Shown: positions 1 to 15,690, numbered from the stretch's first letter. The stretch is DNA of 64,000 bases from Oscillospiraceae bacterium (GCA_015069195.1 SVJA01000004.1:10978-74977), one strand, 5' to 3'. The notes: a model not told the origin generated them from the sequence alone. Program-made: numbers and translations.

Positions 1-547
1 CTTAGAACGCGAAAAGCAGAAAGAGAAAGAGCGCAAGCAAAAAGAAAGAGACAAAAAGAAAGCTCAGGAACAGAAAGCTTTGATGCTTGAAAAAGATAGA
101 AAAGAAAAAGAGCGTGCGAAAGCTAAAGCTTTAAAAGAGAAGCAACTTGCGGCAGAGAAAGCTCAGAAGGAAAAGGATGCCGCAAAAGCGAAGGCTTTGC
201 GCGAAAGAGAAGCCGCTAAGCTTTTAAAGGAAAGAGAAGCGGCAAAGGCTAAAGCTTTGAAAAAGAAAGAAGCCGAGGCTGAAAAACTTCGCAAGGAAAA
301 AGAGTTACAGCTTGAACGAGACCGAAAAGCTAAAGAACGCGCGAAAGCGAAGGCCTTGAAAGAAAAGGAACTCGAAAAAGAAAAGTTGCGCAGACAGAAG
401 GTCGCAGAAGCTGAAAAAGCTCGCAGACAAAAGGCTACAGAGGCTGAAAAGGCTCGTAGATTAAAGGCTAAAGAAGCCGAAAAGTTACGAATGAAAAAGC
501 AAAAAGAAAGAGAGCAAGAAAAAGCTAAAAAGACTAAGAAAGATTGA
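1..547 (+). CDS. Lys/Glu/Ala-rich charged repeat (coiled-coil-like) protein, C-terminal part; reading frame is open from position 2 so the 5' end lies outside the window
   Basis: ORF 80..547 continues upstream in frame without a stop. Tandem 11-13 aa repeats (KAKALKEKE..., EAEKARRQKAT x3) are mirrored by 33-39 bp DNA repeats. No enzymatic motif. Confidence 0.5.
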   Translation, partial: LEREKQKEKERKQKERDKKKAQEQKALMLEKDRKEKERAKAKALKEKQLAAEKAQKEKDAAKAKALREREAAKLLKEREAAKAKALKKKEAEAEKLRKEKELQLERDRKAKERAKAKALKEKELEKEKLRRQKVAEAEKARRQKATEAEKARRLKAKEAEKLRMKKQKEREQEKAKKTKKD

Positions 548-576
548 ATTTGACACAAATTATGAAAGGAGCGGCT

Positions 577-1473
577 ATGGCAAAGAAAAGCATTTTGAAA
601 AACATACTTATCATATGCGGACTGTTCATTGTACTGATAGCTGCAACTTTTTCGTGGTTTGTTATGAGAGACAGCGGTGATATCGGAAATCTGGAAATGG
701 CAGTTATCGATGCTGCGTATATAAAGGTTTCTAAGGACGAAGGTCTTACTTGGGAAAACAACTTGGACTTAGATCTGGGAACGATAGTTTCTTTGAGGGA
801 AACGACGGGTGACGGTGTAACTTTTTATGAACCTGTATACGACGGTACCGACAGTATAAGCGGATATGTACAATCGGCAAATGAAAATGTGTATTTTGAA
901 AGTGTAATTACTTTTAAGACTGACAGAACCCAAAGTATATATCTTACCGATGAGAGTTTTATTGTTCCGGCAGATACCGCGAGTGATACAAAGAATAAAA
1001 GTGAATTCGGTAATTACAGCAAGGATTATATAGCCGGTGCGATTCGTGTGGGATTTTTTGAGTTGACGGATGCTGGAGAATATAAGCCTGTTTTTATATG
1101 GGTACCAAATCCGAAAATTCAATATAATGCAAAGAATAACACGGTAACGGAAAACGGCACGGTTGAAGATTATTATTCATACTATGCAAATGGTGAAGAA
1201 CCGGGATTCGTGAAAATAATGACAAACGGCGAGTCAGATGGCATGTCAGATCCTTTGGTGTGGGGCAGTTTACAGCAAGACGGAGTAAAACCGGTGTTGT
1301 CTTTTGATAAAGAGACCGAAGCCGAACCTGACGGTAGCATCACTAAAAAGCTTATTGCTCGTGTCTGGGTAGAGGGTACTGACCGCGAATGTGTCAGAGC
1401 ATTGTATCAGGGTAAGTTCAAAATGTATTTTAAATTTCAGGCGGTAAGGGAGGTTAGCAACAATGAAGAATAA
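577..1473 (+). CDS. Secreted protein with SipW-cognate-type signal peptide (paralog 1 of 3); function unknown
   Basis: Start chosen at MAKKSILKN (RBS AAAGGAG 5 nt upstream). N-terminus has a K-rich n-region, a hydrophobic h-region, then TFSWF. Shares DYIAGAIRVxFxELTD, NPK and RVWVEGTDREC motifs with the next two genes. Confidence 0.7.
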   Translation: MAKKSILKNILIICGLFIVLIAATFSWFVMRDSGDIGNLEMAVIDAAYIKVSKDEGLTWENNLDLDLGTIVSLRETTGDGVTFYEPVYDGTDSISGYVQSANENVYFESVITFKTDRTQSIYLTDESFIVPADTASDTKNKSEFGNYSKDYIAGAIRVGFFELTDAGEYKPVFIWVPNPKIQYNAKNNTVTENGTVEDYYSYYANGEEPGFVKIMTNGESDGMSDPLVWGSLQQDGVKPVLSFDKETEAEPDGSITKKLIARVWVEGTDRECVRALYQGKFKMYFKFQAVREVSNNEE

Positions 1474-2605
1474 GAATAAATTAGTAATAAGTATAGTTGC
1501 TATCCTTGTTGCGCTTACGGCTATCGGCGGAACTCTTGCATGGTTCTTCATAAATGAAAGTTCTTATGTAGACTATGGTTCTGACATTTCCTGTGAAGCC
1601 GGACAGAGCTTAGAGATATCTATCGACGGAGGTAAGAGTTGGTCGGGATTTGTGTCAAACGAAGGTTTCAAATCATCCACTGTTGATATAACAGGGGATG
1701 GTATAAATATGTACAGACCCGTTTCTATCGACGAAACTTCAAATCCGACGGGTTACCAACCGGCAGTTGCAATTGATGAAAATGGTGTGGGAGATTTTAT
1801 AGATATTGACTTGATGTTCCGTACCACTTCCAAGATGAATGTGTATCTGAACGGTGAATCATATATTTCTCCTACAAATCCTACGTTGGGCGGAAATATG
1901 TTCGGCAATTTCAGCCGTGATTATATTGCAGGAGCTACCAGAGTTGCTTTTATAGAAGTGACAGATAATGTCGAAACCGGTGCAGAAGAATATGATTTGA
2001 AAATGATTTGGGCGCCCAATCCTAAATATCAGCTTTCGAAGAGTACAGGCGGCATATATACTTTTACTGTTAACGGATCAAGAGAAACATATTACTATAC
2101 TGTCTATGAGGATGGTGAGTATGTAAAGAAAGCTTATACATCTGATGATTTTGCAACATCTCGTTTCCTTGCGGGAAATACCGGTGCTGACATATCAAAC
2201 GGCGGTGAGAGTGCTGTTTTGTTTTCTACAAATCCGGCTGCCGGAGAGTTTGATTACAAAAAAATGAAGATAAGAATTTGGTTTGAGGGAACTGACCGTG
2301 AGGCAAGTGAAGCTCTTGCCGGTGGAAAAGTTGCGGCAAAACTGAAGTTTACCGGATTAAATAAAGCCGTTCCATCCGAAGAGAATTTGAATGCGCTGGA
2401 TGCGGTAGAATATGATGTTTCTTCAAAGTCTTTAACCGGTGTGCTATCGGGAATGGCGTTCTCAACAGACGGATATACTTGGACCGCTTACAATGATGCA
2501 AAGCCTAATTTGCCGAATTTTGACAGCGGAATGATTGTATATTTACGGTACAATGAAACAAAGGGCAGTCTTAGGACTGACATTAAAAAAATAATGATTC
2601 CATAG
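1463..2605 (+). CDS. Secreted protein with SipW-cognate-type signal peptide (paralog 2 of 3)
   Basis: RBS GGGAGG. N-terminus MKNKNKLVISIVAILVALTAIGGTLAWFF. Motifs TGDGINMYRPV, FGNFSRDYIAGATRVAFIEVTD, IWAPNPK, RIWFEGTDREASEAL are shared with paralog 1. Overlaps the upstream gene by 11 nt. Confidence 0.7.
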   Translation: MKNKNKLVISIVAILVALTAIGGTLAWFFINESSYVDYGSDISCEAGQSLEISIDGGKSWSGFVSNEGFKSSTVDITGDGINMYRPVSIDETSNPTGYQPAVAIDENGVGDFIDIDLMFRTTSKMNVYLNGESYISPTNPTLGGNMFGNFSRDYIAGATRVAFIEVTDNVETGAEEYDLKMIWAPNPKYQLSKSTGGIYTFTVNGSRETYYYTVYEDGEYVKKAYTSDDFATSRFLAGNTGADISNGGESAVLFSTNPAAGEFDYKKMKIRIWFEGTDREASEALAGGKVAAKLKFTGLNKAVPSEENLNALDAVEYDVSSKSLTGVLSGMAFSTDGYTWTAYNDAKPNLPNFDSGMIVYLRYNETKGSLRTDIKKIMIP

Positions 2606-2615
2606 AAAGGGGCAT

Positions 2616-3491
2616 ATGCATATGAAAAAATTAAAAGGTCTTATGTCCGTGGTTTCTGTGGTGTGGGCGTTTTTTCTGTTGATTGCATTTACGTTTACAT
2701 GGGTTGCCAGGAACTGGACACCGAGTTTTGAGCAAAATGAAATACAGATCAGTACAGCAGGTGCGCTGGTTATAAGCTTGACCGGTGACGATAATCATGA
2801 CGTTGTTTCTCTTAATGAGGTTGTCCAACTCGATTCATTTGTCTTTAAGCAAGTGTCCAGCCAAGATGGTGAGACATTCTTCTGGAAGGATTTTACTCCT
2901 ACTCTTAATGACGAACCCGCGGTTTACAAAAAGGTTACCGATTTGCAGAAAGAAAACTATATAGACACGGAGTTTGCTTTGAAACTTGACGATTCGCTTA
3001 CTGAACCGAAGTACATATTTATACATCCTGATTCGATTTTGTCCAGCGAAAACATCGGAATATCCTCTGATGTTGCAAAGGCTATAAGGATTTCTTTGCA
3101 GTATGAAGATATCGATGAAAACGGTCAGCCTGTAAAATATTCATATATTTTAGGCAATACAGAAGATAAGGATGAACCGGATTATTCTACTTCGGCGGTT
3201 TTACCCGATGCTGACGGTAAAAATGATAAGGATGAGACTGCTACAAACCAGCAGAAAGTATACAATCTGCGCTATTTCAATGCCGGTTGGGATAATTATA
3301 CAAACGGGCAGACTGATCATAATTTTACGGTTGAACCGTCGAGAACACTGTTCAAACTTAACCCTGGTGGAATAAGATGGATAAAGATGAGAATTTGGCT
3401 TGAGGGTGCAGATGAAAACTGCGTAAATGAAATTGCAGGGCAGTCTTTTGATATGGTGTTGAAATTTGATTCAATCAGTGTATCACAATAA
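2616..3491 (+). CDS. Secreted protein with SipW-cognate-type signal peptide (paralog 3 of 3, more divergent)
   Basis: N-terminus MHMKKLKGLMSVVSVVWAFFLLIAFTFTWVARNW. C-terminal motif RIWLEGADENCVNEIAGQSF aligns with the WxEGTDRE motif of paralogs 1 and 2. Confidence 0.65.
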   Translation: MHMKKLKGLMSVVSVVWAFFLLIAFTFTWVARNWTPSFEQNEIQISTAGALVISLTGDDNHDVVSLNEVVQLDSFVFKQVSSQDGETFFWKDFTPTLNDEPAVYKKVTDLQKENYIDTEFALKLDDSLTEPKYIFIHPDSILSSENIGISSDVAKAIRISLQYEDIDENGQPVKYSYILGNTEDKDEPDYSTSAVLPDADGKNDKDETATNQQKVYNLRYFNAGWDNYTNGQTDHNFTVEPSRTLFKLNPGGIRWIKMRIWLEGADENCVNEIAGQSFDMVLKFDSISVSQ

Positions 3492-3525
3492 TTTTTAAGA
3501 CAAGAACACGAAAGGAGGCAGAGAT

Positions 3526-4143
3526 ATGCGTGATTTGAAAAAATTAATACTTCCGATGATCTCGATATTGCTTTGCCTCACTGCAACATTTGCTTGGATA
3601 AATGAGCTCCAGAATCCTGAGGGACGTTATCTTAATTTTGAGTTCAAAGACGGTAAGGCTGTTGTTACGGACACCGACATAGAAGTTAAAATGTACAGAG
3701 ATAGAACCGGGACAGATGATTTTGAGGATATTACGGCTTCTTTTGCAAATGGCAGTCTTGAAAATTTAGTTAATATAGATAATTTTGCACCGGGTGCAAG
3801 ACAAAAGTACAAAGTGGAAATTGCTAATACCGGTAAGATTCCGCTCTCACTTCAGATGGTACTTTCAAACATTTCCTGCCCTGATGAATTATTGCAGGAA
3901 CATCTTGTTGTGGGAACAGGTGGATTTGAAGGATTCACTGCGGAATATCCTGCTCCTGATTTGGTGCAGGACACTATGAAAAACAGTCTTGTCGGAGAGA
4001 GCATTGTCTTGATTGACGGTGCAGCTGTACCGGCGGACAAGACTGTAACTATTTACTTTTACGTAATGTTTTCGCGTACTGCGACAGAGGAAGTTTCCGA
4101 CTGTCACTTTACAATCGGAAGCGTTAACTTTATAGCATTATAA
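3526..4143 (+). CDS. TasA/camelysin-family (peptidase M73-like fold) secreted protein
   Basis: RBS AAAGGAGG. Signal peptide ends ATFAWINE. The mature region VNIDNFAPGARQKYKVEIANTGKIPLSLQMVLSN matches the TasA/CalY motif NLKPGDKLTKDFQFENNGSLAIKEV (comparison from memory). Confidence 0.7.
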   Translation: MRDLKKLILPMISILLCLTATFAWINELQNPEGRYLNFEFKDGKAVVTDTDIEVKMYRDRTGTDDFEDITASFANGSLENLVNIDNFAPGARQKYKVEIANTGKIPLSLQMVLSNISCPDELLQEHLVVGTGGFEGFTAEYPAPDLVQDTMKNSLVGESIVLIDGAAVPADKTVTIYFYVMFSRTATEEVSDCHFTIGSVNFIAL

Positions 4144-4160
4144 ACGGAGAAATTGAAGAA

Positions 4161-4724
4161 ATGGTTAAAAAGATTTTTAAAATTTGTTCAACTGTACTGT
4201 TTGTTTTGCTGATGATAATAACCGTAACACTTGTTGTTATGAGATTTATGGGGGAAAGCTACAGTTTCCTTGGGTATAATGCATATTATGTCCTAACGGG
4301 AAGTATGGAGCCTGAGATTATGGCCGGAGATGTTATTTTTTCAAAATCAGTTGATGATATGTCCAAACTTAAAGTCGGCGATGTTATTACATATAACGGC
4401 AGAGTCGGAACGGTAAAGGATAAATCAATAACTCATAAAATTATAGAGATGCGTGAAGAAAACGGTGAACTTGTTTTTGTGACGCAGGGCGTTGCAAATC
4501 CGGCGGCAGACCCGCCGATAACATCGGATCAGATTGTTTCTAAGATGGTTTTTAAAAGCAGTCTTTTAGGAAATGTCGTTTCGGTTGTAAACAACAAGGT
4601 CGGATTTTTAATGATAATAATATTGCCGCTTGCGGTATTCCTTACGAGTGAGGTTGTTTCACTTGTAAGAACATATAAAGAATGTAAGGAGGAACAGGTA
4701 GATGAAGAAAATGCAGCAGCTTAA
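4161..4724 (+). CDS. sipW: Signal peptidase I, ER/archaeal type (S26B), SipW-like
   Basis: N-terminal TM segment followed by YVLTGSMEPEIMAGDVIF, the GSMEP catalytic-Ser box of ER-type SPases. A conserved His lies in GTVKDKSITHKIIE. C-terminal second TM segment. 187 aa. Confidence 0.85.
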   Translation: MVKKIFKICSTVLFVLLMIITVTLVVMRFMGESYSFLGYNAYYVLTGSMEPEIMAGDVIFSKSVDDMSKLKVGDVITYNGRVGTVKDKSITHKIIEMREENGELVFVTQGVANPAADPPITSDQIVSKMVFKSSLLGNVVSVVNNKVGFLMIIILPLAVFLTSEVVSLVRTYKECKEEQVDEENAAA

Positions 4725-7700
4725 AATTTCAAAACTGAAAAATCTTGTAGGTCGACGCTACGGTATGCTTGCACTTGTTCTTTCTTTTGTTATGTTGCTT
4801 ACTACAATATCCTTTGCTTGGTATCAGAATCAGGTTTCTTTGGAAGGTAACACTTTTTCAACCGGTGATATCGATTTTGTGTCACGCGGATATGATAGCG
4901 AGGGAAATCTTGTTACAACTATTTTGCAAGGCGACAAAGATCCTGCCGGCTATGAGAAAGTAAACCAGCCTCTTTTTAATCACATCGGTTGGGATGCAAA
5001 CATGCAGACCGAAACTTCGTACATAGTTGTCGAAAAGACCGGTTCTTTGGAGATGGATTATAAGATAAGCTTTACTGCAGCCGGAACTGTTGAGTATCTC
5101 GGCGGATTTTGGTATGCACTTACCGACGTGACAAATGAGGTTGTGGGTACAAGTTCAAACAGTGACCATTCAGCGCTTCTCAAAGATTATATTGCAAAAG
5201 GCAACAATCCTAAGGCTGAAACTGATGGCTATAATATGGCGACAATGGACAGATATGCGACGATAGGCAGTATTTTAGATGGTTCAAATATAACCGCAAG
5301 ATATTATCGTTTGGACTATGGCATGAAATCTTCTGCAATTCCTGAAGAATACACAAACATGTCTGTTGAGATATTTGCAAAGATTTTTGTGACTCAGGTC
5401 GGCGCTTTGGACAGTGAAGACGGTACAGGTTATACATACAACTGTTCTTCACAGCTTGATATAGAAAAGGCAAGAGAGCAGGCTCTCCCCGGAGATAATA
5501 TTGTATTGCTTAACAATATTACTTTCGAGGGCGATTTGGTTTTCAATAAAGGTGTAAATCTTTTCACAAACAACTACACTTTGGAAGTTCTCGGTAATTT
5601 GATTTACGAATATGTTGCTCCGACTGCGATGACCGTGAATGTTTCCGGTAACGGACGTATTCTTGTCAGTTGCCCTCGTGCGGGAGTCGGCGGCAACTTT
5701 ACAATCGAGGCTCCGAACAGTGATGTAACAATCATCGGAAGTAACACTTCGGACGGTGATATTGTTACTGAGAGCAGATTCACTGTAAGCGGAACACGCG
5801 CCTATGGTGCGGCTGGTGTTACCCTTAGAAACTTAAGAGTTGTAGATAAAGCGTACGGTACTCTTAAAACTATATATGTAAACAGTAATTCAAGAGTGAC
5901 CGTTACTGACAATACAACAATTTCAAGATTGGAAGCTGTTGCCAGAGCTACAAATATCGAAGTTCAGAATATGGGTATCATCCATGAGCTGTCTTTGATA
6001 AATATGTATATTTTGCCGCAGACATTGAGCCCGCAGATTTATGTATATAATATGGGTATTATTACTCAATCTATACAGCTTCCTGCATGGTCTACTCCGT
6101 TCGAAATTGTTACTCAGTCGCCGCTTACATGCTCCGGCAATACAAAAATTGTTCAAGCGATTACGGGTAATGATATGTCCGTAACAGGTGCTACAGTAAC
6201 CGGGGCATTCACAACTGCTGATATTGAAAGAGAAAACATAGACGATACTGTTGTTCCTATGGGTAACAGCAATACTCAGCTTATAGTTTACTATCAGAAT
6301 ATTAAAAAAGACGGTCAGACAGTTGAAACGACTATTCAATCATTACTTGAAGATTATTTCAGAGAGATAAATGTTGTAAATGTTGCGGCAGCTATTGCCG
6401 AAATTACAGATTTGAGAGTTATATCTGTTGAAGGCAAGCAAGTTCTGAATTCTGATATACAGTATCTCAGAGGTGCTGCGTTGCCGTATCTTAAGAATAT
6501 TGATTTGGAACGTGCTATCTTATTTGATACTGTTACTTCAAGAGAAAATCATTTGTTCGACAATGCTTTCAACGGTGATACAAGGATTGAAAATCTTGTA
6601 TTGCCACAGCGACTTGAGTCTATCGGTGTCGGTGCTTTGAGCAATATGTCTTGTGATAATGTTATAAGAATTCCGGAGTCTGTAAAGGAGTTTGGTGTGA
6701 ACTGGTTTAGAGGAACAAAATATGTTTGCTTTGAATCACCCACCCCTGTCATTGCCGCATATAATGCTGCTTCAGGTCTTTCTGGTGTTAAGGCAATATT
6801 TACAGAAGAACCGTATCTTTCTGCATATAGACAAAATTATGCAAACTATGCAAATATTATTTACTGTGTTGGTCAAAAGGATGACAGCGGTAATAATTTT
6901 GTGCGCCGTCTTAATCAGGGAAATGATTGGGAGATTGTTTACTATATTGGTAATCAGGGGAATATAACAAGTCTTTCCGTGGGATCAAATGTTCGTGTCG
7001 ACGGTCAGCTTATTAATATTGTAAATATAGGTGAAAATGCATATGGAAATACTTTGCCGGATTCGGTTACAACTATAAGCTTTGCCGATGGAGTTCGTGT
7101 GATAGGTAAGAGAGCTTTTTACGGTCGACCGATAAAGTCTGTTGAAAGTTGGGGAATATCTTTAACTACAATTGGTTATGGTGCTTTTGAAAATTGCTCC
7201 CTTCTGCAAGGCGAGATAATGCTTCCGGCAACAATGCAGACAATTGACTCGTATGCATTTGCTTCTTGTGGCATGCTTGAGGGTATAAATGCAGGTGGTA
7301 CAAAATTTGTCTATACCGGTGCATTTTTAAATTGTTCCGGTATGGTTTATGCAGATATGTCGAGTGTTGAGACATTTGAGACTGTTGGTACTGTTGGCGT
7401 TTTCAATAATTGCCCCAGACTTGTATCAGTGACTGCTCCGACACTTAAGAAAACAATAGGAAATGTATTTTGGAATTTAAGCTCTCTTAGAGAGGTTGTT
7501 TTCGGTGCGGCTTCTTTTGAAGAAGTTGCTGTTTCCGGATTCACATCATTTTATGGTAGTGTAGGAAATAATACTAAAATATATTTTGATGTGGATGATA
7601 CCTCTTTGGTAGCTATAAACGGTGTGTCTTCTGAACGTATTTATTCTGCTGGTAATAAACTTGGCGAAGTTATTGTTAATGACTATAATATAGGTGAATA

Positions 7701-10700
7701 TATTATTCGAAACAATGACAACGGTGAGGTTGTTTTGGTTACTTCGAATATTGATTATGTTTCAAATGGTAGCAGTGCTGATTTGATATCATTCCCTGAA
7801 GAGTACAATGGAAGTATAGTTACTGAAATTGGTAGAAATGCTTTTCGATATCAGACTTTTGATAATGTGAAAATTTCGTTCGGTAGTGGATTGAAAAAAA
7901 TAGGCGAGTATGCTTTTTATGAGAAGAGCGGTATCGAATATTTGGATTTTAGTCAAGCTGTAAATCTGAAGAATATCGGTGAATATGCATTTTGTAGAAA
8001 TGTCGGAATTGAGGGCGATTTAATTTTGCCCCAAAGTATGCATGAGATTGGTGCATATGCATTTTATAGCTGTTCCGAGATAAGTAATATAAATACAGGT
8101 GGAACTTCTTTTGTCAGAGAAAGTGCATTTGAGTTGTGTGGTAAAATTGTAAAGGCTGAATTGCCTGAAGTTTTGATATTAGGTGGAGCTACTAATGACA
8201 ATTCTGCCGTTTTCTTAAATTGTAGCTCATTGGTAGCTGTATATATGCCGAAATTATATTTGATTAATGGCTTTTACACTTTTCGATATTGTACAGCGTT
8301 ACGCGAACTTCATATGGCAAGTAGCAATGCGGAAATGAATTTTAATGGATATTCTTTTACTGATTGTGATAGTTCTAAAATTAAGATTTTTGTGCCGGAA
8401 GAATTAGTTGATTTCTACCGTGCAAAGGGACTTGCTGGTCTTCAAGATCGTAGTGTGTTTGAAGAGGGTGAGAAGCTAGGTGAAAATATTATTTTCGGAT
8501 ATAATATTGGTGAATATATTGTCAAAGAAAATCATGATGGAACGGCAACTCTTATAACTTCTCGTATTGATTTTTCTAGTGAGGTAGTACTTCCTAGTGT
8601 GTGGAATGATAACGGGGTAGAAAGAAAAATTACTGTTATCGGTGAGAGTGCATTCAAAAATGGTATATTTAATAATGCAACTCTTTCTATTGGTGAATAT
8701 GTGGAATTGATTGAAACAAATGCCTTTGATTCTGCTAATGGGCTTAAGGCGGTTAATTCTTGGGGCAATGCATTAACAACAATTGCAAATAATGCATTTT
8801 TTAATTGTGCAGATTTGACTGCAGATATTGTGTTGCCTGATTCATTGGATTACATAGGTGATTCTGCCTTTGCTTCAAGCGGTATAAAGAGTGTTGTTAC
8901 TGGTGGTGCTACTGCAGTTGGTTGGGACGTTTTTAAGAATTGTCAAAAACTTATATGGGCTGAGCTATCAAATGTGGTGATGATTGGAAAAGCTGGCCGT
9001 GATAATTGTTTATTTGAAGGTTCTGAAAATTTAGTATCTGTTAGAGCTCCGTTGTTATCCGTAGTTAAAGGTCAGTTTATTTTTATTGGCTGTGGCTCTT
9101 TGCGAGAATTGTATTTAGGCGCTTCCGACTTTGAGTCTTTAGGTGGTTATGCTTTTTACTTGTGCCAAACAGATAAGATAAAGATTTTTGTGCCTGCGGA
9201 GTTGTTGGATTTTTATAAAAGTAAGAATCCAGATGGACTAGGTGCTACTCATATTTATCCTATTGGTGAAAAAGTTGGTACAAATGAACTTAATGGTTAT
9301 AACCTTGGAAGATATATAGTTAAAGTTAATGAAGATGGTCAGACTGCTACACTTATAACATCGAATGTATCTTTTGAGGGCGATGTGACATTGCCTAATA
9401 CATTTACGAGTGACGGAAAAGAATTTCCTATTACTGCGATATTTAAAAATGCATTTATGAATGAGTCTTTTACAAATGTGAATCTTACTGTGGGTGCACA
9501 CGTTAAAGAAATCAGTGAGAATGCGTTCTATGGCAGAAAAGGTATTTTGAATGTAAATCTTAAAAATACAGAAACTGTTTGTGATTCTGCTTTCTATAAT
9601 TGCTCGGACATGACAAATCTTGTGGCAAATTATTTGAAAACGATAAAGGGAAACAATGCATTTAACGGATGTTTATCGCTTACAATATTGACTTTGCCCT
9701 CACTTGAAAATGTTACTGGATCGCAGAACTTTGCAAATAATACATCTATCAAGAAGGTTTATTTACAGAATATTGTATCGTTAGGTAATCAGACTTTCTA
9801 CGGTTGTTCAAATCTTGAAGAATTTGTAGTAAATAAAAAGCTTTCTTCTGCAAACGATATACCTACGGCGACAGATGCATTTTCAGGCGACGTTCGCACG
9901 GATCTTCCGATAAGAGTTCCTGCTGCTTCTATGAGTTACTATGGTGGTAGCTGGCAGGGCAGACCGGTGCTTGCTTACGGAGATACTATCGTCGTGGGGG
10001 ATGAGTCTTTTGTTGTTCTTCCTATGAATGGTGGATATATTATCCAATCATATATCGGTGGATCAGAATCCGTTGTGATTCCGGAGACTCTTGGGACGTT
10101 AAATGTTGTAGGTCTTGAAGAAAATGCTTTTGGAATAGTGACACAAACTATTACATCTGTTACTTTACCAAAGTATCTGTATTTCCTTGGTTTTGATGCT
10201 TTGTCGGAACTTTTGGGACTTAATGAGATTGCAGTAGATTCCGAGAATAGATTCTTCTCTTCTGTTGACGGTGTTCTTTATAGCAAAGACAAAAAAATGC
10301 TTGTAAGATATCCGCACGGAAAGACTGATGCATCGTTTACCGTTCCTGATATGGTCGTTGCAATTTCGGGTAATGCATTTAAAAATGCAAGAAATCTTAA
10401 CTCAATAATCCTTGGTAGCGGGTTAGGTGCTATAGACAGTGTTGCATTTATCGGATGTAATTATCTCGGACAGATCACATTCACCGGAGCTGTTCCACCC
10501 GTACTTATGGGAGCCTCGATATTTGATACGAACCTTACCGGATTTACAATGACTGTTCCGACTGGTAGTGTTGATGCATATATACGTGCAATGAATTTTG
10601 CAGAGTATGCACCGTATATGAACGGTGGAATTGAGATCCCGACAAGCGGTGATATGAATATGATTCATTGGGGCCCTGCGGTTGCACAGCAGACAAACGT

Positions 10701-10773
10701 TTACCCAACTTCTTCCAGAAAAAAAGATGAAGAAGATTATGTCGTGAACAGAACTACGACATCAGGCAATTGA
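4702..10773 (+). CDS. Giant (2023 aa) secreted surface protein: SipW-cognate signal peptide plus TasA-like N-terminal module, a beta-helix-like region and many BspA-type leucine-rich repeats (LRR_5)
   Basis: RBS AAGGAGG. N-terminus ...LLTTISFAWYQNQVSLEGNTFSTGDIDF (compare TasA ATFASGTLDL). Dozens of repeats of the form IGxxAFxxCxxLxxIxLP. Four ~260-aa super-repeats each begin with LGENIIFGYNIGEYIVKEN..-like blocks. Overlaps the sipW 3' end by 23 nt. Confidence 0.8.
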   Translation: MKKMQQLKISKLKNLVGRRYGMLALVLSFVMLLTTISFAWYQNQVSLEGNTFSTGDIDFVSRGYDSEGNLVTTILQGDKDPAGYEKVNQPLFNHIGWDANMQTETSYIVVEKTGSLEMDYKISFTAAGTVEYLGGFWYALTDVTNEVVGTSSNSDHSALLKDYIAKGNNPKAETDGYNMATMDRYATIGSILDGSNITARYYRLDYGMKSSAIPEEYTNMSVEIFAKIFVTQVGALDSEDGTGYTYNCSSQLDIEKAREQALPGDNIVLLNNITFEGDLVFNKGVNLFTNNYTLEVLGNLIYEYVAPTAMTVNVSGNGRILVSCPRAGVGGNFTIEAPNSDVTIIGSNTSDGDIVTESRFTVSGTRAYGAAGVTLRNLRVVDKAYGTLKTIYVNSNSRVTVTDNTTISRLEAVARATNIEVQNMGIIHELSLINMYILPQTLSPQIYVYNMGIITQSIQLPAWSTPFEIVTQSPLTCSGNTKIVQAITGNDMSVTGATVTGAFTTADIERENIDDTVVPMGNSNTQLIVYYQNIKKDGQTVETTIQSLLEDYFREINVVNVAAAIAEITDLRVISVEGKQVLNSDIQYLRGAALPYLKNIDLERAILFDTVTSRENHLFDNAFNGDTRIENLVLPQRLESIGVGALSNMSCDNVIRIPESVKEFGVNWFRGTKYVCFESPTPVIAAYNAASGLSGVKAIFTEEPYLSAYRQNYANYANIIYCVGQKDDSGNNFVRRLNQGNDWEIVYYIGNQGNITSLSVGSNVRVDGQLINIVNIGENAYGNTLPDSVTTISFADGVRVIGKRAFYGRPIKSVESWGISLTTIGYGAFENCSLLQGEIMLPATMQTIDSYAFASCGMLEGINAGGTKFVYTGAFLNCSGMVYADMSSVETFETVGTVGVFNNCPRLVSVTAPTLKKTIGNVFWNLSSLREVVFGAASFEEVAVSGFTSFYGSVGNNTKIYFDVDDTSLVAINGVSSERIYSAGNKLGEVIVNDYNIGEYIIRNNDNGEVVLVTSNIDYVSNGSSADLISFPEEYNGSIVTEIGRNAFRYQTFDNVKISFGSGLKKIGEYAFYEKSGIEYLDFSQAVNLKNIGEYAFCRNVGIEGDLILPQSMHEIGAYAFYSCSEISNINTGGTSFVRESAFELCGKIVKAELPEVLILGGATNDNSAVFLNCSSLVAVYMPKLYLINGFYTFRYCTALRELHMASSNAEMNFNGYSFTDCDSSKIKIFVPEELVDFYRAKGLAGLQDRSVFEEGEKLGENIIFGYNIGEYIVKENHDGTATLITSRIDFSSEVVLPSVWNDNGVERKITVIGESAFKNGIFNNATLSIGEYVELIETNAFDSANGLKAVNSWGNALTTIANNAFFNCADLTADIVLPDSLDYIGDSAFASSGIKSVVTGGATAVGWDVFKNCQKLIWAELSNVVMIGKAGRDNCLFEGSENLVSVRAPLLSVVKGQFIFIGCGSLRELYLGASDFESLGGYAFYLCQTDKIKIFVPAELLDFYKSKNPDGLGATHIYPIGEKVGTNELNGYNLGRYIVKVNEDGQTATLITSNVSFEGDVTLPNTFTSDGKEFPITAIFKNAFMNESFTNVNLTVGAHVKEISENAFYGRKGILNVNLKNTETVCDSAFYNCSDMTNLVANYLKTIKGNNAFNGCLSLTILTLPSLENVTGSQNFANNTSIKKVYLQNIVSLGNQTFYGCSNLEEFVVNKKLSSANDIPTATDAFSGDVRTDLPIRVPAASMSYYGGSWQGRPVLAYGDTIVVGDESFVVLPMNGGYIIQSYIGGSESVVIPETLGTLNVVGLEENAFGIVTQTITSVTLPKYLYFLGFDALSELLGLNEIAVDSENRFFSSVDGVLYSKDKKMLVRYPHGKTDASFTVPDMVVAISGNAFKNARNLNSIILGSGLGAIDSVAFIGCNYLGQITFTGAVPPVLMGASIFDTNLTGFTMTVPTGSVDAYIRAMNFAEYAPYMNGGIEIPTSGDMNMIHWGPAVAQQTNVYPTSSRKKDEEDYVVNRTTTSGN

Positions 10774-10779
10774 TAAAAT

Positions 10780-10947
10780 TTAATATTTTTTAAAATTAAA
10801 ATTCGGAGGCATAAGCTGATTTGCTTGTAATAAGTAAAAGGCGAGTGCCTCTGTTTGATTTTCTCTGAATTTTCCTTTTGTGTTTTCATCTGCGAGTGAT
10901 GCGGATAAATCGCGAATCCTTTTCTGGATGTATTGGAATTCTGTCAT
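10780..10947 (-). CDS. Small hypothetical protein (55 aa), MTEFQYIQKRIRDLSASLADENTKGKFRENQTEALAFYLLQANQLMPPNFNFKKY
   Basis: Not in the ORF track (shorter than 60 aa). ATG is preceded by GGAGG with 6-nt spacing. Convergent with the giant gene. No homology recognised. Confidence 0.3.
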   Translation of the reverse strand: MTEFQYIQKRIRDLSASLADENTKGKFRENQTEALAFYLLQANQLMPPNFNFKKY

Positions 10948-11015
10948 AGTAATCCTCCGGTTTTGTAGTTATAAATGTAGTTTATCCCGACAATAAAAAA
11001 ATATGAAAAATGTGG

Positions 11016-11044
11016 TTGACAACGCCTGACGATGCGTATAAAAT
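11016..11044 (+). promoter_or_regulatory. Putative sigma-A promoter of the str operon (TTGACA-17-TAAAAT)
   Basis: TTGACA at 11016-11021, 17-nt spacer, TAAAAT at 11039-11044, about 70 nt upstream of rpsL. Confidence 0.5.
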
Positions 11045-11112
11045 AATCTAGTCTGCGTACAAGGGATTACTATGCCTTGTAGACGGATAGAATATTATTG
11101 GAGGTGAATTGA

Positions 11113-11538
11113 ATGCCAACATTTAACCAGTTAGTTCGTAAGGGAAGAGAGACTCAGACAAAGAAGTCTACATCTCCTGCATTGCAGAGAGGTATAAACT
11201 CACTCAAGAAAAAGTCTACTGACATCAGTTGTCCTCAGAAGAGAGGCGTTTGCACAAACGTAAGAACAACTACCCCTAAGAAGCCTAACTCAGCTTTGAG
11301 AAAAATCGCCAGAGTACGTTTGACAAACGGTATGGAAGTTACTGCTTACATTCCGGGTATCGGACATAACTTGCAGGAGCACAGCGTTGTTCTTATCAGA
11401 GGCGGTAGAGTTAAGGATCTGCCTGGTGTAAGATACCACATTATCAGAGGTACACTCGACGCAGCAGGTGTTAACAACAGACTTCAGAGCAGATCTAAAT
11501 ACGGTGCAAAAGCGCCTAAGGCTGCTGCTAAGAAATAA
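11113..11538 (+). CDS. rpsL: 30S ribosomal protein S12
   Basis: [12 protein letters not shown]...[59 protein letters not shown]; canonical S12. Confidence 0.97.
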
Positions 11539-11665
11539 TATCTGAATATTATTCTCAGCGAAATTTTAAGAATTTTTCATACCGGTTATACCGGAAGGTG
11601 CCGAGTATTTAATATATATGTGCGATAAGCCTTGTTAAATACGCGAGCACTGACTGCGGATATAA

Positions 11666-12187
<522 letters not shown>

Positions 12188-12207
12188 TATCAAGGAGATT
12201 TTAGACT

Positions 12208-14310
12208 ATGGGAAGAGAATATTCACTTAAGAATACCAGAAACATAGGCATAATGGCTCATATCGATGCCGGTAAGACAACAACTACCGAGCGTATACTC
12301 TACTATACAGGTAAGAACCATAAAATCGGTGAGACACACGACGGTGCTGCTACAATGGACTCCATGCAACAGGAGCAGGAGAGAGGTATTACTATCGCCT
12401 CTGCTGCTACGACTGTACACTGGGTTACAGACCGCGGAACAGCTAATGAAAAGGACACAAGAATAAACATTATCGATACTCCCGGACACGTTGACTTCAC
12501 AGTAGAGGTTGAGCGTTCACTCCGTGTACTCGACGGTTCTGTTACACTTTTCTGTGCTAAGGGCGGCGTTGAGCCTCAGTCAGAGACAGTTTGGAGACAG
12601 GCTGACAAATACGGCGTTCCGAGAATAGGTCACGTAAACAAGATGGATATTTTGGGTGCTGACTTCTATCGTGTTGTTGACATGATTAAAACACGTCTCG
12701 GTGCAAATGCAGTGCCGATTACATTGCCTATCGGTAAAGAAGATACATTTACAGGTATTATTGACCTTGTAAAAATGGAAGCTCATATCTATGAGGGAGA
12801 ACTCGGTGAGAAAGTTACCGTTACAGAGATTCCCGCTGATATGATCGAGCTTGCAGAACAGTACAGAGGAGAGATGCTCGAAGCTATCGCTTCTGAAGAC
12901 GAAGAGCTTATGATGAAGTACCTTGAAGGTGAGGAACTCACTATTGATGAAATCAAGGGTGCTATCCGTAAAGCTACTATCGGTCTCAATATCATCCCTG
13001 TTACTTGTGGTTCATCATACAGAAACAAAGGTGTACAGCAGTTGCTTGACGCTATCGTTGACTACTTGCCTTCACCGCTCGACGTTCCTGCTATAAAGGG
13101 TGAACTCCCGGATGGTTCTGAGACAGTTCGTCACTCAAGCGACGAAGAGCCTTTCTCAGCTCTCGCATTCAAAATTTTGACTGACCCGTTCGTAGGTAAG
13201 CTCTGCTTCTTCAGAGTATACTCGGGTTATGTTGACGCAGGTTCTTATGTTCTTAACTCAACAAAGGACAAGAAAGAGCGTATGGGTCGTATCGTATTGA
13301 TGCACTCAAATCAAAGACAGGAAATTGAACGTGCTTATGCCGGTGATATCGCCGCTGCTATCGGTCTTAAAGATACAACAACAGGTGACACACTCTGTGC
13401 AGAGAACAGCCCTGTAATCCTCGAGCGTATGGAATTCCCGGATCCGGTTATTTCAGTTGCTGTTGAGCCTAAGACAAAAGCAGGACAGGAGAAGATGGGT
13501 ATCGCCCTTCAGAAACTTGCTGAAGAGGATCCTACATTCAGAGTAAAAACTGATCCTGAAATCGGACAGACAATCATTTCCGGTATGGGTGAGCTTCACC
13601 TCGAAATCATTGTTGACCGTTTGCTCCGTGAGTTTAAGGTAGAAGCTAACGTAGGTAACCCGCAGGTTGCTTACAAAGAGGGTATCAAGAAAGCTGCTAT
13701 CAAGCAGGAAGGTAAGTTCGTAAGACAGTCCGGTGGACGTGGTCAGTACGGACACTGTGTAATTGACGTTGAACCTTTGGAAAGAGGTAAAGGATACGAG
13801 TTCGTTAATAAAATCGTCGGTGGTGTTATTCCTAAGGAATACATCGGACCTGTTGACCAGGGTATCCAGGAAGCTCTCCAGAGCGGTATACTTGCAGGCT
13901 ATCCTGTAGTAGACGTAAAGGTTACTTTGGTATTCGGTTCATACCACGAAGTCGACTCATCTGAAATGGCGTTCAAGATTGCCGGTTCTATGGCTATCAA
14001 AGAAGCTATAAAGAATGCAGGACCTGTACTTCTCGAGCCTATCATGAAGGTTGTTGTAGTAGTTCCTGAGCCGAACCTCGGTGACGTAATCGGTTCGATC
14101 AATGCTAAACGTGGTCGTATCGAGAGCATTGATGACGGTGCTGCCGGAATCAAGCAGATCACATCTTTCGTACCGCTTGCAGAAATGTTCGGTTACACAA
14201 CACAGCTTCGTTCTATGACTCAGGGTCGTGGTTCATTCTCTATGGAGCCGAGCCACTACGAAGACGTTCCGAAGAGCGTTCAGGATAAGGTTATCGCTGA
14301 GAAAAAGTAA
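12208..14310 (+). CDS. fusA: Elongation factor G
   Basis: [23 protein letters not shown], 700 aa; canonical EF-G. Confidence 0.97.
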
Positions 14311-14320
14311 TAAATTAAAT

Positions 14321-14342
14321 CGCGGCGGCGTGACGCCGCCGC
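14321..14342. other. GC-rich perfect hairpin GCGGCGGCG-TGA-CGCCGCCGC after fusA (no clear U-tract)
   Basis: 9-bp GC stem; likely a partial terminator or attenuator between fusA and the tuf promoter. Confidence 0.4.
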
Positions 14343-14391
14343 AAAATAACTGATTAGCAGGCTTAGTTTTCGCTTAAAATAAAAATTAAGC

Positions 14392-14420
14392 TTGATATAT
14401 AGGTAAAAAATGTGTATTAT
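14392..14420 (+). promoter_or_regulatory. tuf promoter, TTGATA-17-TGTGTATTAT (extended -10)
   Basis: TTGATA at 14392-14397, 17-nt spacer, TG at 14413-14414, TATTAT at 14415-14420. Confidence 0.6.
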
Positions 14421-14478
14421 GTACACATTGAAATTTACCAAAAAATTCTTTTATTTTATCAAAAGGAGGACATTTTAA

Positions 14479-15690
14479 ATGGCTAAATCAAAGTTCGAAA
14501 GAACAAAACCCCACGTAAATATCGGTACTATCGGTCACGTTGACCATGGTAAAACAACTCTTACAGCTGCTATCACAAAGACTCTCGGTCTTGGTAACGC
14601 TAACGTTGCAGCTATGGCTTACGACCAGATCGATAACGCTCCGGAGGAGAAGGCAAGAGGTATCACGATTAATACTTCACACGTTGAGTATGAGACAGCT
14701 ACAAGACACTACGCTCACGTTGACTGCCCCGGACATGCCGACTACGTTAAGAACATGATCACAGGTGCTGCTCAGATGGACGGCGCAATTCTTCTCGTTT
14801 CAGGTCCCGATGGCCCGCAGGCTCAGACAAGAGAGCACATCCTTCTCGCTCGTCAGGTTGGCGTTCCTTACATCGTAGTATTCATGAACAAGTGCGACCA
14901 GCTTGCTGAAGAAGATATGGAGCTCCTCGATCTTTCAGAGATGGAGATCAGAGACCTTCTCAATCAGTACGAGTTCCCGGGTGACGATATTCCGATCATC
15001 AGAGGTTCAGCTCTCAAAGCTCTCGAGTGCGAAAGCTCAGATCCCAGTGATCCGGCATACGCTCCTATCCTCGAGCTCATGGCTGCAGTAGACGAGTACA
15101 TTCCTACTCCTGAGAGACCGACAGACAAGCCGTTCCTTATGCCTGTTGAGGACGTATTCACAATCACAGGTCGTGGTACAGTTGCTACAGGTCGTCTTGA
15201 GAGAGGTATCATCAAAGTTGGTGACGCTGCTGAAATCGTTGGTATCAAAGAAGAAGTTAAGAGCACAGTTATCACTGGTGTAGAAATGTTCAGAAAGCTT
15301 CTCGATCAGGCTGAAGCAGGCGACAACATCGGTGCTCTTCTCAGAGGTATCCAGAGAACAGAAATCGAGCGTGGCCAGGTTCTCGTAAAACCCGGTACAA
15401 TCAATCCTCACACACATTTCTTTGGTCAGGTATACGTACTTACTAAAGAAGAGGGTGGACGTCACAAACCTTTCTTCTCAAACTACAGACCTCAGTTCTA
15501 TTTCCGTACAACAGACGTTACAGGTGTTATCACTCTTCCCGAGGGAACAGAAATGGTTATGCCTGGTGACCACGTAACTATGGAAGTTAAACTCATTACT
15601 CACATCGCTATGGAGGAAGGTCTCCGTTTCGCTATCCGTGAGGGTGGTAGAACTGTTGGTGCAGGTACTGTTTCTAAGATCGTAGAATAA
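14479..15690 (+). CDS. tuf: Elongation factor Tu
   Basis: [23 protein letters not shown], 403 aa. Confidence 0.97.

Follow-up and report, generated by a model that had tools for sequence, protein, structure and literature searches.

The 64,000-nucleotide stretch of Oscillospiraceae DNA analyzed here (GCA_015069195.1 SVJA01000004.1:10978-74977), referred to below as the window, begins with the second, distal half of a conserved cluster of twelve genes. This cluster encodes secreted proteins with a shared type of signal-peptide end, two archaeal-type signal peptidases, and a McrB-like GTPase that is predicted to be membrane-anchored and is accompanied by a DUF2357 (McrC-like) partner. It is a member of CoCoPALM, a kind of locus that has been named but not characterized. 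The best explanation of its composition is that it produces a heteropolymeric surface fiber that bears a leucine-rich repeat (LRR) adhesin and of which the membrane-anchored GTPase pair is an integral component, a function that we consider probable.

An open reading frame (ORF) scan of the plus strand of the window at 544/577-10773 recovers six co-directional genes, designated A to F, which overlap or lie close together, as a first-pass annotation of the window had described. Neighboring genes overlap by up to 23 bases or are separated by up to 34, and a GGAGG-like ribosome-binding site stands ahead of every start. Other parts of that annotation required revision. It opened the locus at 544, where a TTG codon had been considered as the start of A; this candidate was dropped and the ATG at 577 adopted, giving a protein of 298 amino acids (aa), because the Shine-Dalgarno site precedes 577, which is also the public gene call. 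The four substrates it had called small are 205–380 aa long, and the signal peptidase gene it had placed at the center is the fifth of the six. The cluster, moreover, continues upstream beyond the window edge. A metagenome contig from the same population (L004) corresponds to the window from L004 position 8539 onward, with 1 mismatch in 12605 bases, and carries six further co-directional genes upstream of A. The lysine-rich reading frame at 1-547, which had been proposed to share a transcription unit with the six genes, is the coiled-coil tail of the cluster's own DUF2357 protein. The complete order is EAL, g2, g3, SipW2, McrB-like GTPase, DUF2357, A, B, C, D, SipW1, and usually the LRR giant, with the following features (window coordinates unless L004 is named):

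L004, upstream genes in order: HD/EAL protein, 451 aa; g2, 231 aa; g3, 310 aa
L004 4836-5567: SipW2, second archaeal-type signal peptidase, 243 aa
L004 5618-7141: McrB-like GTPase, 507 aa, just upstream of the window
L004 7172-9085: DUF2357 McrC-like protein, 637 aa
2-547, plus strand: 3' end of the DUF2357 McrC-like gene, last 181 codons and stop (match to L004)
577-1473, plus strand: gene A, 298 aa, secreted beta-rich protein with the C-terminal motif WVEGTDREC
646-660, plus strand: A signal-peptide end TFSWF and predicted peptidase site (motif scan; kept in orthologues)
1463-2605, plus strand: gene B, 380 aa, member of the A family extended at the C-terminus by a beta domain of about 75 aa
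1532-1546, plus strand: B signal-peptide end TLAWF (motif scan)
2616-3491, plus strand: gene C, 291 aa, divergent paralogue of A and B with the motif IWLEGADENC
2691-2705, plus strand: C signal-peptide end TFTWV (motif scan)
3526-4143, plus strand: gene D, 205 aa, predicted small jelly-roll protein
3586-3600, plus strand: D signal-peptide end TFAWI (motif scan)
4161-4724, plus strand: gene E, SipW1, 187 aa, SipW-like archaeal/endoplasmic reticulum (ER)-type (S26B) signal peptidase (TIGR02228)
4702-10773, plus strand: gene F, 2023 aa, BspA-type LRR giant (PF13306)
4810-4824, plus strand: F signal-peptide end SFAWY (motif scan)

Conservation was assessed on four relatives of B at 40–50% identity and on 19 loci from a scan of species-representative genomes, in which cluster genes were recognized with profile hidden Markov models (HMMs) built from the twelve gene products. 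This synteny comparison, which the first-pass annotation had proposed as a check, revealed the larger unit and found its order conserved. The unit occurs in the window organism and in at least 11 other metagenome-assembled genomes (MAGs), and every locus with enough flanking sequence keeps the order (L001, L003, L004, L006, L007, L010, L014, L019, L020, L021, L022, and L023/24, the last without the LRR giant). Its taxonomic reach covers the Oscillospiraceae, a Clostridia MAG, and a Coprobacillus (Erysipelotrichales) MAG, where B is only 28–29% identical, and all hosts are uncultured bacteria of the gut or rumen (buffalo, cattle, goat, rabbit, and chicken). The McrB-like protein is the best conserved component, with a mean column identity of 83% vs 42–63% for the secreted proteins, and the cluster HMM matched its gene at E = 2e-248 even in Coprobacillus. 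In that MAG (L023/L024; 12744-13340 onward) the cluster ends after the last peptidase, without the giant; the same 11-gene stretch stands on two contigs with identical gene coordinates and scores. A rearranged variant (L027) reads SipW2, McrB-like, DUF2357, a 282-aa protein, a 1039-aa B-like protein, a 196-aa protein, and a 185-aa peptidase, again without an LRR gene; the single 1039-aa protein replaces the separate B and C. The genomic neighbors at five loci are housekeeping genes and not defense islands. An Rfam scan of the whole 21-kb locus, which covered elements such as a c-di-GMP (cyclic di-GMP) riboswitch, gave no match.

The secreted proteins are united by the way their signal peptides end. 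A scan of the 90 window ORFs that reach 100 aa gave exactly five instances of the pattern [TS][FLYI][ASTG]W[FVIYL], one each in A, B, C, D, and F and each closing an N-terminal hydrophobic segment (residues 21–37); since the chance expectation in the same scan is about 0.06 occurrences, the pattern is real and not a product of chance. It is kept in orthologues at 40–50% identity, and the signal of the upstream protein g3 ends in TYAWF, of the same type, so that six proteins share the end T-x-[AST]-W-[FVIY]. The g2 product begins with a longer basic stretch, and its membrane segment lacks the Trp motif. The five SipW-cognate N-termini of the first-pass annotation are thus present as a motif in the window, but none reaches the cutoff of TIGR04088, the model for SipW-cognate signals (cutoff 19): B alone matches, at 13.1 bits and E = 0.081, and A, C, D, F, g2, and g3 give no match. 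It is the motif that carries the apparent likeness to SipW-cognate signal peptides. In B and D, conservation is highest in the 15–30 residues that follow the predicted cleavage site (0.82 vs 0.69 in B and 0.92 vs 0.74 in D), and the most conserved stretch of D is residues 21–36.

Two signal peptidases that match TIGR02228, the model for archaeal-type signal peptidase I, are present in all loci. SipW1, the product of E, scores 98 bits and SipW2 97.6 bits against a cutoff of 51.85, and both retain the catalytic Ser and His, which in SipW1 lie in GSMEP and THKI; the S26B assignment given earlier to the product of E stands on these grounds, GSMEP serine included. SipW1 falls below the Bacillus SipW equivalog NF046067 (101.6 bits vs a cutoff of 190).

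The 507-aa protein encoded just upstream of the window contains hydrophobic segments at about residues 10–32 and 55–80, followed by a heptad-like coiled-coil region with a faint FtsL match (PF04999, E = 0.04) and then by a McrB-type AAA+ GTPase domain. The McrB identity is given by matches to PDB entry 6hz4 (E = 2e-7, residues 193–383), NF008457 (E = 2.6e-7), and the PADLOC model PDC-M26A (E = 4.5e-38). The core carries a Walker A motif GTGKT and a Walker B motif LDEMN, and HMMER aligns an invariant GTANNDDS to McrB MNTADRS, in which NNDD is readable as an NxD or NxxD signature. Because of the positive-inside rule, the catalytic domain is predicted to be cytoplasmic. The N-terminus of the 637-aa partner (L004 7172-8341) matches DUF2357 (PF09823) at 38.3 bits against a cutoff of 23.3, as do 12 of 12 orthologues, and its tail is a coiled coil of about 250 aa that ends at window position 547 and consists of 30% K, 20% E, 18% A, and 11% R. 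Pfam finds no nuclease or other effector domain in this protein beyond DUF2357, and a PDB search with its full profile returned low-complexity coiled-coil matches only. Its residues 160–380 (L004 7650-8310), between DUF2357 and the coiled coil, are conserved and occupy the site of the PD-(D/E)xK nuclease of McrC; no clear D...ExK motif was seen there on inspection, and the region could be an inactivated nuclease.

This combination has a name in the literature. A census of McrBC systems introduces CoCoPALM, gives it three sentences, and defers its analysis; it describes the McrB homologue and the McrC homologue as usually both bearing coiled coils, reports a link to signal peptidases for a whole large clade of McrB GTPases, and groups CoCoPALM with CoCoNuT-like systems, for which a defensive role is predicted (Bell et al., eLife 2024; PMC11090510). 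The supplements of the CoCoNuT paper hold no CoCoPALM content, and our search found no later paper on CoCoPALM. The cluster has three of its stated features, namely a GTPase of the McrB type with transmembrane and coiled-coil segments, a coiled-coil DUF2357 partner, and signal-peptidase genes. The paper also gives CoCoPALM an NxD in place of an NxxD GTPase signature, and the NNDD of the cluster fits either reading. The composition of what may be called the “pilus” half, the shared signal motif, the presence of two peptidases, and the size of the A/B/C family go beyond the literature that we found.

The A, B, and C products are paralogues (BLASTP, A–B E = 7e-34; A–C E = 7e-8), and g3 is a full-length paralogue of all three (hhalign 98%, E = 1e-13), while g2 shares with A, B, C, and g3 the C-terminal motif W-x-EG-x-D-x-E-C (hhalign 89%). 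In A, B, and C the motif W-x-EG-x-D-x-E-[CA] lies at window positions 1280-1310, 2270-2300, and 3400-3430, and all 122 sequences compared have its W, E, G, and D; by analogy with the sites of archaeal cannulae and AbpX, it might be a metal (Ca2+) site. The family is large and unannotated: at 50% identity, the clusters matched by the B-family profile number 2881 for E ≤ 1e-3 and 200 for E ≤ 1e-30, and searches of A to D with Pfam, NCBIfam, and PADLOC gave nothing at threshold. Peptidase_M73 matches none of 122 B-family members, and PDB sequence and profile searches with B, D, the B family, the D family, and the F N-terminus gave no relevant match. In its AlphaFold2 (AF2) model, which is confident (pLDDT, the predicted local distance difference test, 90), B starts with a long helix, continues into a beta-sandwich core, and ends in a small beta domain. 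A Foldseek search of this model against the PDB gave nothing significant. Separately, the fold matches listed for B include CanX cannulae, CS17, CfaB, FimA, FimG, and a DUF1102 tube, all of them subunits of donor-strand filaments. The models hint at a weak resemblance, at the level of the fold, between the A/B/C/g3 family (with g2 by its motif) and TasA and the archaeal donor-strand filaments. The C-terminal beta domain of B (residues ~305–380; window 2375-2605) recurs in tandem in larger proteins of the representative library, in 9 stretches of P0325 and 5 stretches of P0349 (1550 aa), and looks like a mobile, unannotated repeat domain.

Among the small proteins, D is the most like TasA and BsaA. 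Its AF2 model (pLDDT 79) has TasA and AbpA as its top fold matches, with unrelated jelly rolls close behind; B and D were the two modeled among the small proteins for which structure prediction had been proposed earlier. Residues 26–49 are disordered in the model and form a candidate donor strand. Against TIGR04090, the BsaA model (cutoff 60), D scores 12.7 bits (E = 0.076), far below the cutoff; 11 of 120 D orthologues give weak matches (best E = 0.0038), and none of the 120 matches Peptidase_M73. An alignment of the D-family profile with the B-family profile has a probability of 86%, to which the signal peptide contributes.

The giant protein F contains PF13306, the BspA-type LRR_5 family, in 7 stretches (E = 4.7e-93; 308 bits vs a gathering threshold of 27.7) and has the same signal type as its neighbors, in agreement with the 2023-aa LRR substrate described earlier; it falls below the HupY/LrrG equivalog (84.7 bits vs 1250). 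Its signal is followed by a conserved domain of about 230 aa at the N-terminus, then by a beta-helix-like linker and the BspA-type LRR modules. Across species the N-terminal domain keeps AW[YF], G-x-EFSTG-x-I-x-F, VESTGS, YLGG, and IFATQ, and a profile search for its relatives returned at least one near-identical protein among the matches listed. Peptidase_M73 gives weak matches in 2 of 14 N-terminal orthologues (best E = 0.0017) and none in the F of the window. The resemblance of the mature N-terminus of F to that of TasA, also claimed earlier, is retained insofar as hhalign sets NTFSTGDIDF on TasA ATFASGTLDL and EFSTGxIxF is kept in orthologues, but the alignment has a probability of only 5%. 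Weak BsaA/camelysin signals come from both D and the F N-terminus. An F orthologue on L001 (13298-18799) adds a C-terminal NlpC/P60 (cell-wall hydrolase) domain that is missing from the F of the window, and the cargo end of the giant protein appears to vary between species.

We propose that Sec would export the seven proteins g2, g3, A, B, C, D, and F, whose signal peptides would keep them in the membrane. SipW1 and SipW2 would cut after the small residue that precedes Trp, by analogy with the action of SipW on TasA (TWA) and with camelysin, which is cleaved at TFA/FF. The mature N-terminus of TasA is A28, after TWA (checked against PDB 8aur). Outside the cell, the new N-terminal segment would insert into the next subunit by donor-strand complementation, as in TasA, BsaA, AbpA, and the archaeal threads. 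The donor strand of TasA is its mature N-terminus, residues 28–38 (PMC9674648), and that of BsaA is an N-terminal disordered loop, where cleavage by SipW is considered to follow docking of the subunit (PMC11580942). For the cluster proteins two results agree with the idea: the segment after the predicted cleavage site is the most conserved in B and D, and in D it is disordered in the monomer model. The BspA-type LRR giant would serve as the adhesive end piece of the fiber, and F fits a terminal adhesin or a TapA-like nucleator because it combines the shared signal with a TasA-like N-terminal strand and lacks an anchor of its own; g2 is a candidate for the membrane-proximal base. The McrB-like GTPase and its McrC-like activator would be integral to the system and might control or power assembly or export, or might signal. 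The EAL protein of the cluster suggests control by c-di-GMP.

Several observations weigh against a fiber of this kind. Neither A to D nor F reaches the threshold of Peptidase_M73 (PF12389), TIGR04088, or TIGR04090, and E was the only one of the six proteins for which the HMM searches suggested earlier succeeded, at TIGR02228. When three profiles were aligned by hhalign with the single TasA sequence, of which the mature part (residues 28–261) was verified to be identical to PDB 8aur, only the signal and the N-terminal strand aligned, at probabilities of 0.6–10%. F has no LPXTG motif and no C-terminal transmembrane segment and is thus without a recognizable wall or membrane anchor, and because the giant is missing in Coprobacillus and L027, the LRR adhesin would be an accessory part. 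SipW1 and all its orthologues have G-[VT]-A-N in place of the GDN box that SipW2 possesses. The SipW of B. subtilis also has a GDN box. The two cluster peptidases may differ in activity or substrate. TasA-type fibers, finally, are known to assemble without nucleoside triphosphates (NTPs). A sortase-anchored structure and a type IV pilus were also considered and dropped, as F has no LPXTG, no fitting signals were seen, and the family searches of the cluster genes gave no sortase, PilB-like, or prepilin-peptidase match.

It is conceivable, though unlikely, that the N-termini are uncleaved anchors and that the cluster encodes a membrane-anchored envelope complex or a short pseudopilus-like stalk that displays the LRR protein, without a long donor-strand fiber, the S26 proteins serving as assembly factors or cleaving no more than a subset. 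In favor of this reading, the N-terminus appears in the AF2 models as a single helix some 30 residues long, anchors typically have a Trp at the membrane interface, the GDN Asp is missing from SipW1, g2 is without the W motif and its cytoplasmic N-terminus is long and basic, no other anchor is present in F, and BsaA oligomers are reported to remain membrane-anchored through the signal peptide until cleavage (PMC11580942). Such anchors are nevertheless hard to reconcile with two dedicated peptidases that keep their catalytic Ser and His, with a motif like known SipW sites (TasA TWA/AF, 8aur; camelysin TFA/FF), with the strong conservation right after the predicted site, and with fold matches enriched for filament subunits. 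The membership of the GTPase in the McrB family, its match to PDC-M26A, the grouping of CoCoPALM with CoCoNuT-like systems predicted to be defensive (PMC11090510), and the fast divergence of the surface components would suit a system of conflict or immunity that derives from McrBC and is related to CoCoNuT, with a cytoplasmic GTPase effector to which the surface proteins would be coupled as sensors, decoys, or receptors. This seems less probable still, given a McrC-like protein in which Pfam finds no nuclease or effector domain beyond DUF2357, neighbors that are housekeeping genes rather than defense islands, and an EAL regulator and LRR adhesin that better suit a role in adhesion or biofilm formation.

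The first-pass annotation had itself described an expanded tapA-sipW-tasA operon, of which a dedicated peptidase among TasA/camelysin-like signals stands, in what is now the distal half of a twelve-gene cluster with SipW2, g2, g3, EAL, and the McrB/DUF2357 pair. Taken as a plain biofilm-matrix operon of that type, the locus would have the GTPase pair as an unrelated neighbor, such as an inserted defense module; the SipW-type peptidase, the TasA-like signal ends, and the fold matches of D to TasA and AbpA agree with this, as does the hit of the McrB-like protein to a PADLOC defense candidate (PDC-M26A, E = 4.5e-38). We nonetheless regard it as the least probable of these alternatives, as the McrB/DUF2357 pair always lies between SipW2 and gene A in loci with enough flank, Coprobacillus and the rearranged L027 included, the McrB-like gene is the most conserved of the cluster, the whole McrB clade is linked to signal peptidases (Bell et al.; PMC11090510), and A, B, and C are not of the TasA family by sequence. 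Within the preferred explanation, a surface fiber with an integral GTPase pair, a stronger version may be put forward only tentatively and is on balance rather doubtful: that the McrBC-derived GTPase and the DUF2357 protein would act as the dedicated motor or gatekeeper for ordering, powering, or exporting a donor-strand fiber of the TasA superfamily, and that the A/B/C family with its 2881 clusters would be a new major class of Gram-positive pilins. The polymers of BsaA are reported to need type IV pilus proteins to leave the cell (PMC11580942), and this need provides a precedent for TasA-family polymers with an energy-dependent helper.

Downstream of the cluster, F is separated by a 339-base spacer (10774-11112) from rpsL, the first gene of a standard str operon at 11113-15690 (rpsL, rpsG, fusA of 700 aa, and probably tuf of 403 aa) that is unrelated to the cluster; the spacer contains a 55-aa ORF on the minus strand at 10780-10947, called as a gene in public assemblies. 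The position upstream of rpsL to which the first-pass annotation had drawn attention is seen only in the window organism. In other species the downstream neighbor is a SNF2 helicase, sulfate transporter, or DUF1097 gene, and rpsL has its own near-consensus promoter-like site (TTGACA-17-TAAAAT, 11016-11044); the adjacency is therefore incidental, and a functional tie to rpsL was dropped, the neighbor being different in every species examined. A public MAG (Ruminococcaceae/Oscillospiraceae; E7384_037xx; MBE7064914-25) has proteins identical to B and D, and its annotations in this range read hypothetical proteins, “signal peptidase I”, “DUF2357 domain-containing protein”, and “EAL domain-containing protein”.

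The analysis gives the “pilus” half of CoCoPALM a composition, with two archaeal-type peptidases, five proteins of the A/B/C family including g2, a BsaA/TasA-like D, and, in most species examined, a giant LRR adhesin. What the window shows is this half, and its subunits appear to be TasA-superfamily-like. The composition joins two fields that have been unconnected, TasA-type donor-strand fibers and GTPases of the McrBC type, in abundant uncultured Clostridia of the gut and rumen, where adhesion to plant fiber, mucus, or partner cells matters ecologically. A requirement of the GTPase for the fibers would signify a new assembly principle for Gram-positive surface appendages. Were it a motor, it would be the first NTP-dependent assembly machine for the donor-strand class of filaments, with the engine of a restriction enzyme re-used for a surface organelle. 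Cleavage sites, donor strands, a Walker A mutant, and the pairing of peptidases with substrates provide predictions that can be tested.

The closest described counterpart is CoCoPALM itself, which shares with the cluster an McrB-like GTPase with a transmembrane and coiled-coil (FtsB/FtsL-like) N-terminus, a DUF2357 partner, signal peptidases, and a Bacillota host; the paper that names it makes no mention of seven secreted proteins, a shared signal motif, a resemblance to TasA/BsaA, an LRR adhesin, or an EAL gene. The McrBC type IV restriction enzyme (6hz4, 6ut6) likewise combines an AAA+ GTPase core with a DUF2357 partner. In the cluster, however, a membrane anchor and coiled coil replace the DNA-binding N-terminal domain of the enzyme, and the partner has no recognizable PD-(D/E)xK nuclease.

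On the side of the fibers, the tapA-sipW-tasA operon of B. subtilis (8aur; PMC9674648) also encodes an archaeal/ER-type peptidase among its substrates, which form jelly-roll/beta-sandwich subunits and have signals ending in T-W/F-A with an aromatic residue next. Donor strands are supplied there by the mature N-terminus, a role that we propose by analogy for the cluster proteins, and the minor protein TapA has a TasA-like N-terminal strand, as F appears to have. The archaeal donor-strand filaments (AbpA, 7ueg; Sulfolobus threads, 7pnb; Pyrodictium cannulae, 9h8b) have no detectable sequence relationship to the cluster proteins and, unlike the cluster, rely on a generic signal peptidase and have no McrBC-like genes. 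The sipW-bsaA-bsaB-bsaC operon of C. perfringens (PMC11580942) is, like the cluster, a clostridial SipW operon with several TasA-like secreted proteins and a large accessory protein; BsaA polymerizes through an N-terminal disordered strand, and a separate NTP-driven machine, the type IV pilus proteins, aids the export of the polymer. In the cluster, unlike the BsaA operon, the accessory machine is McrBC-like and is encoded inside the operon.

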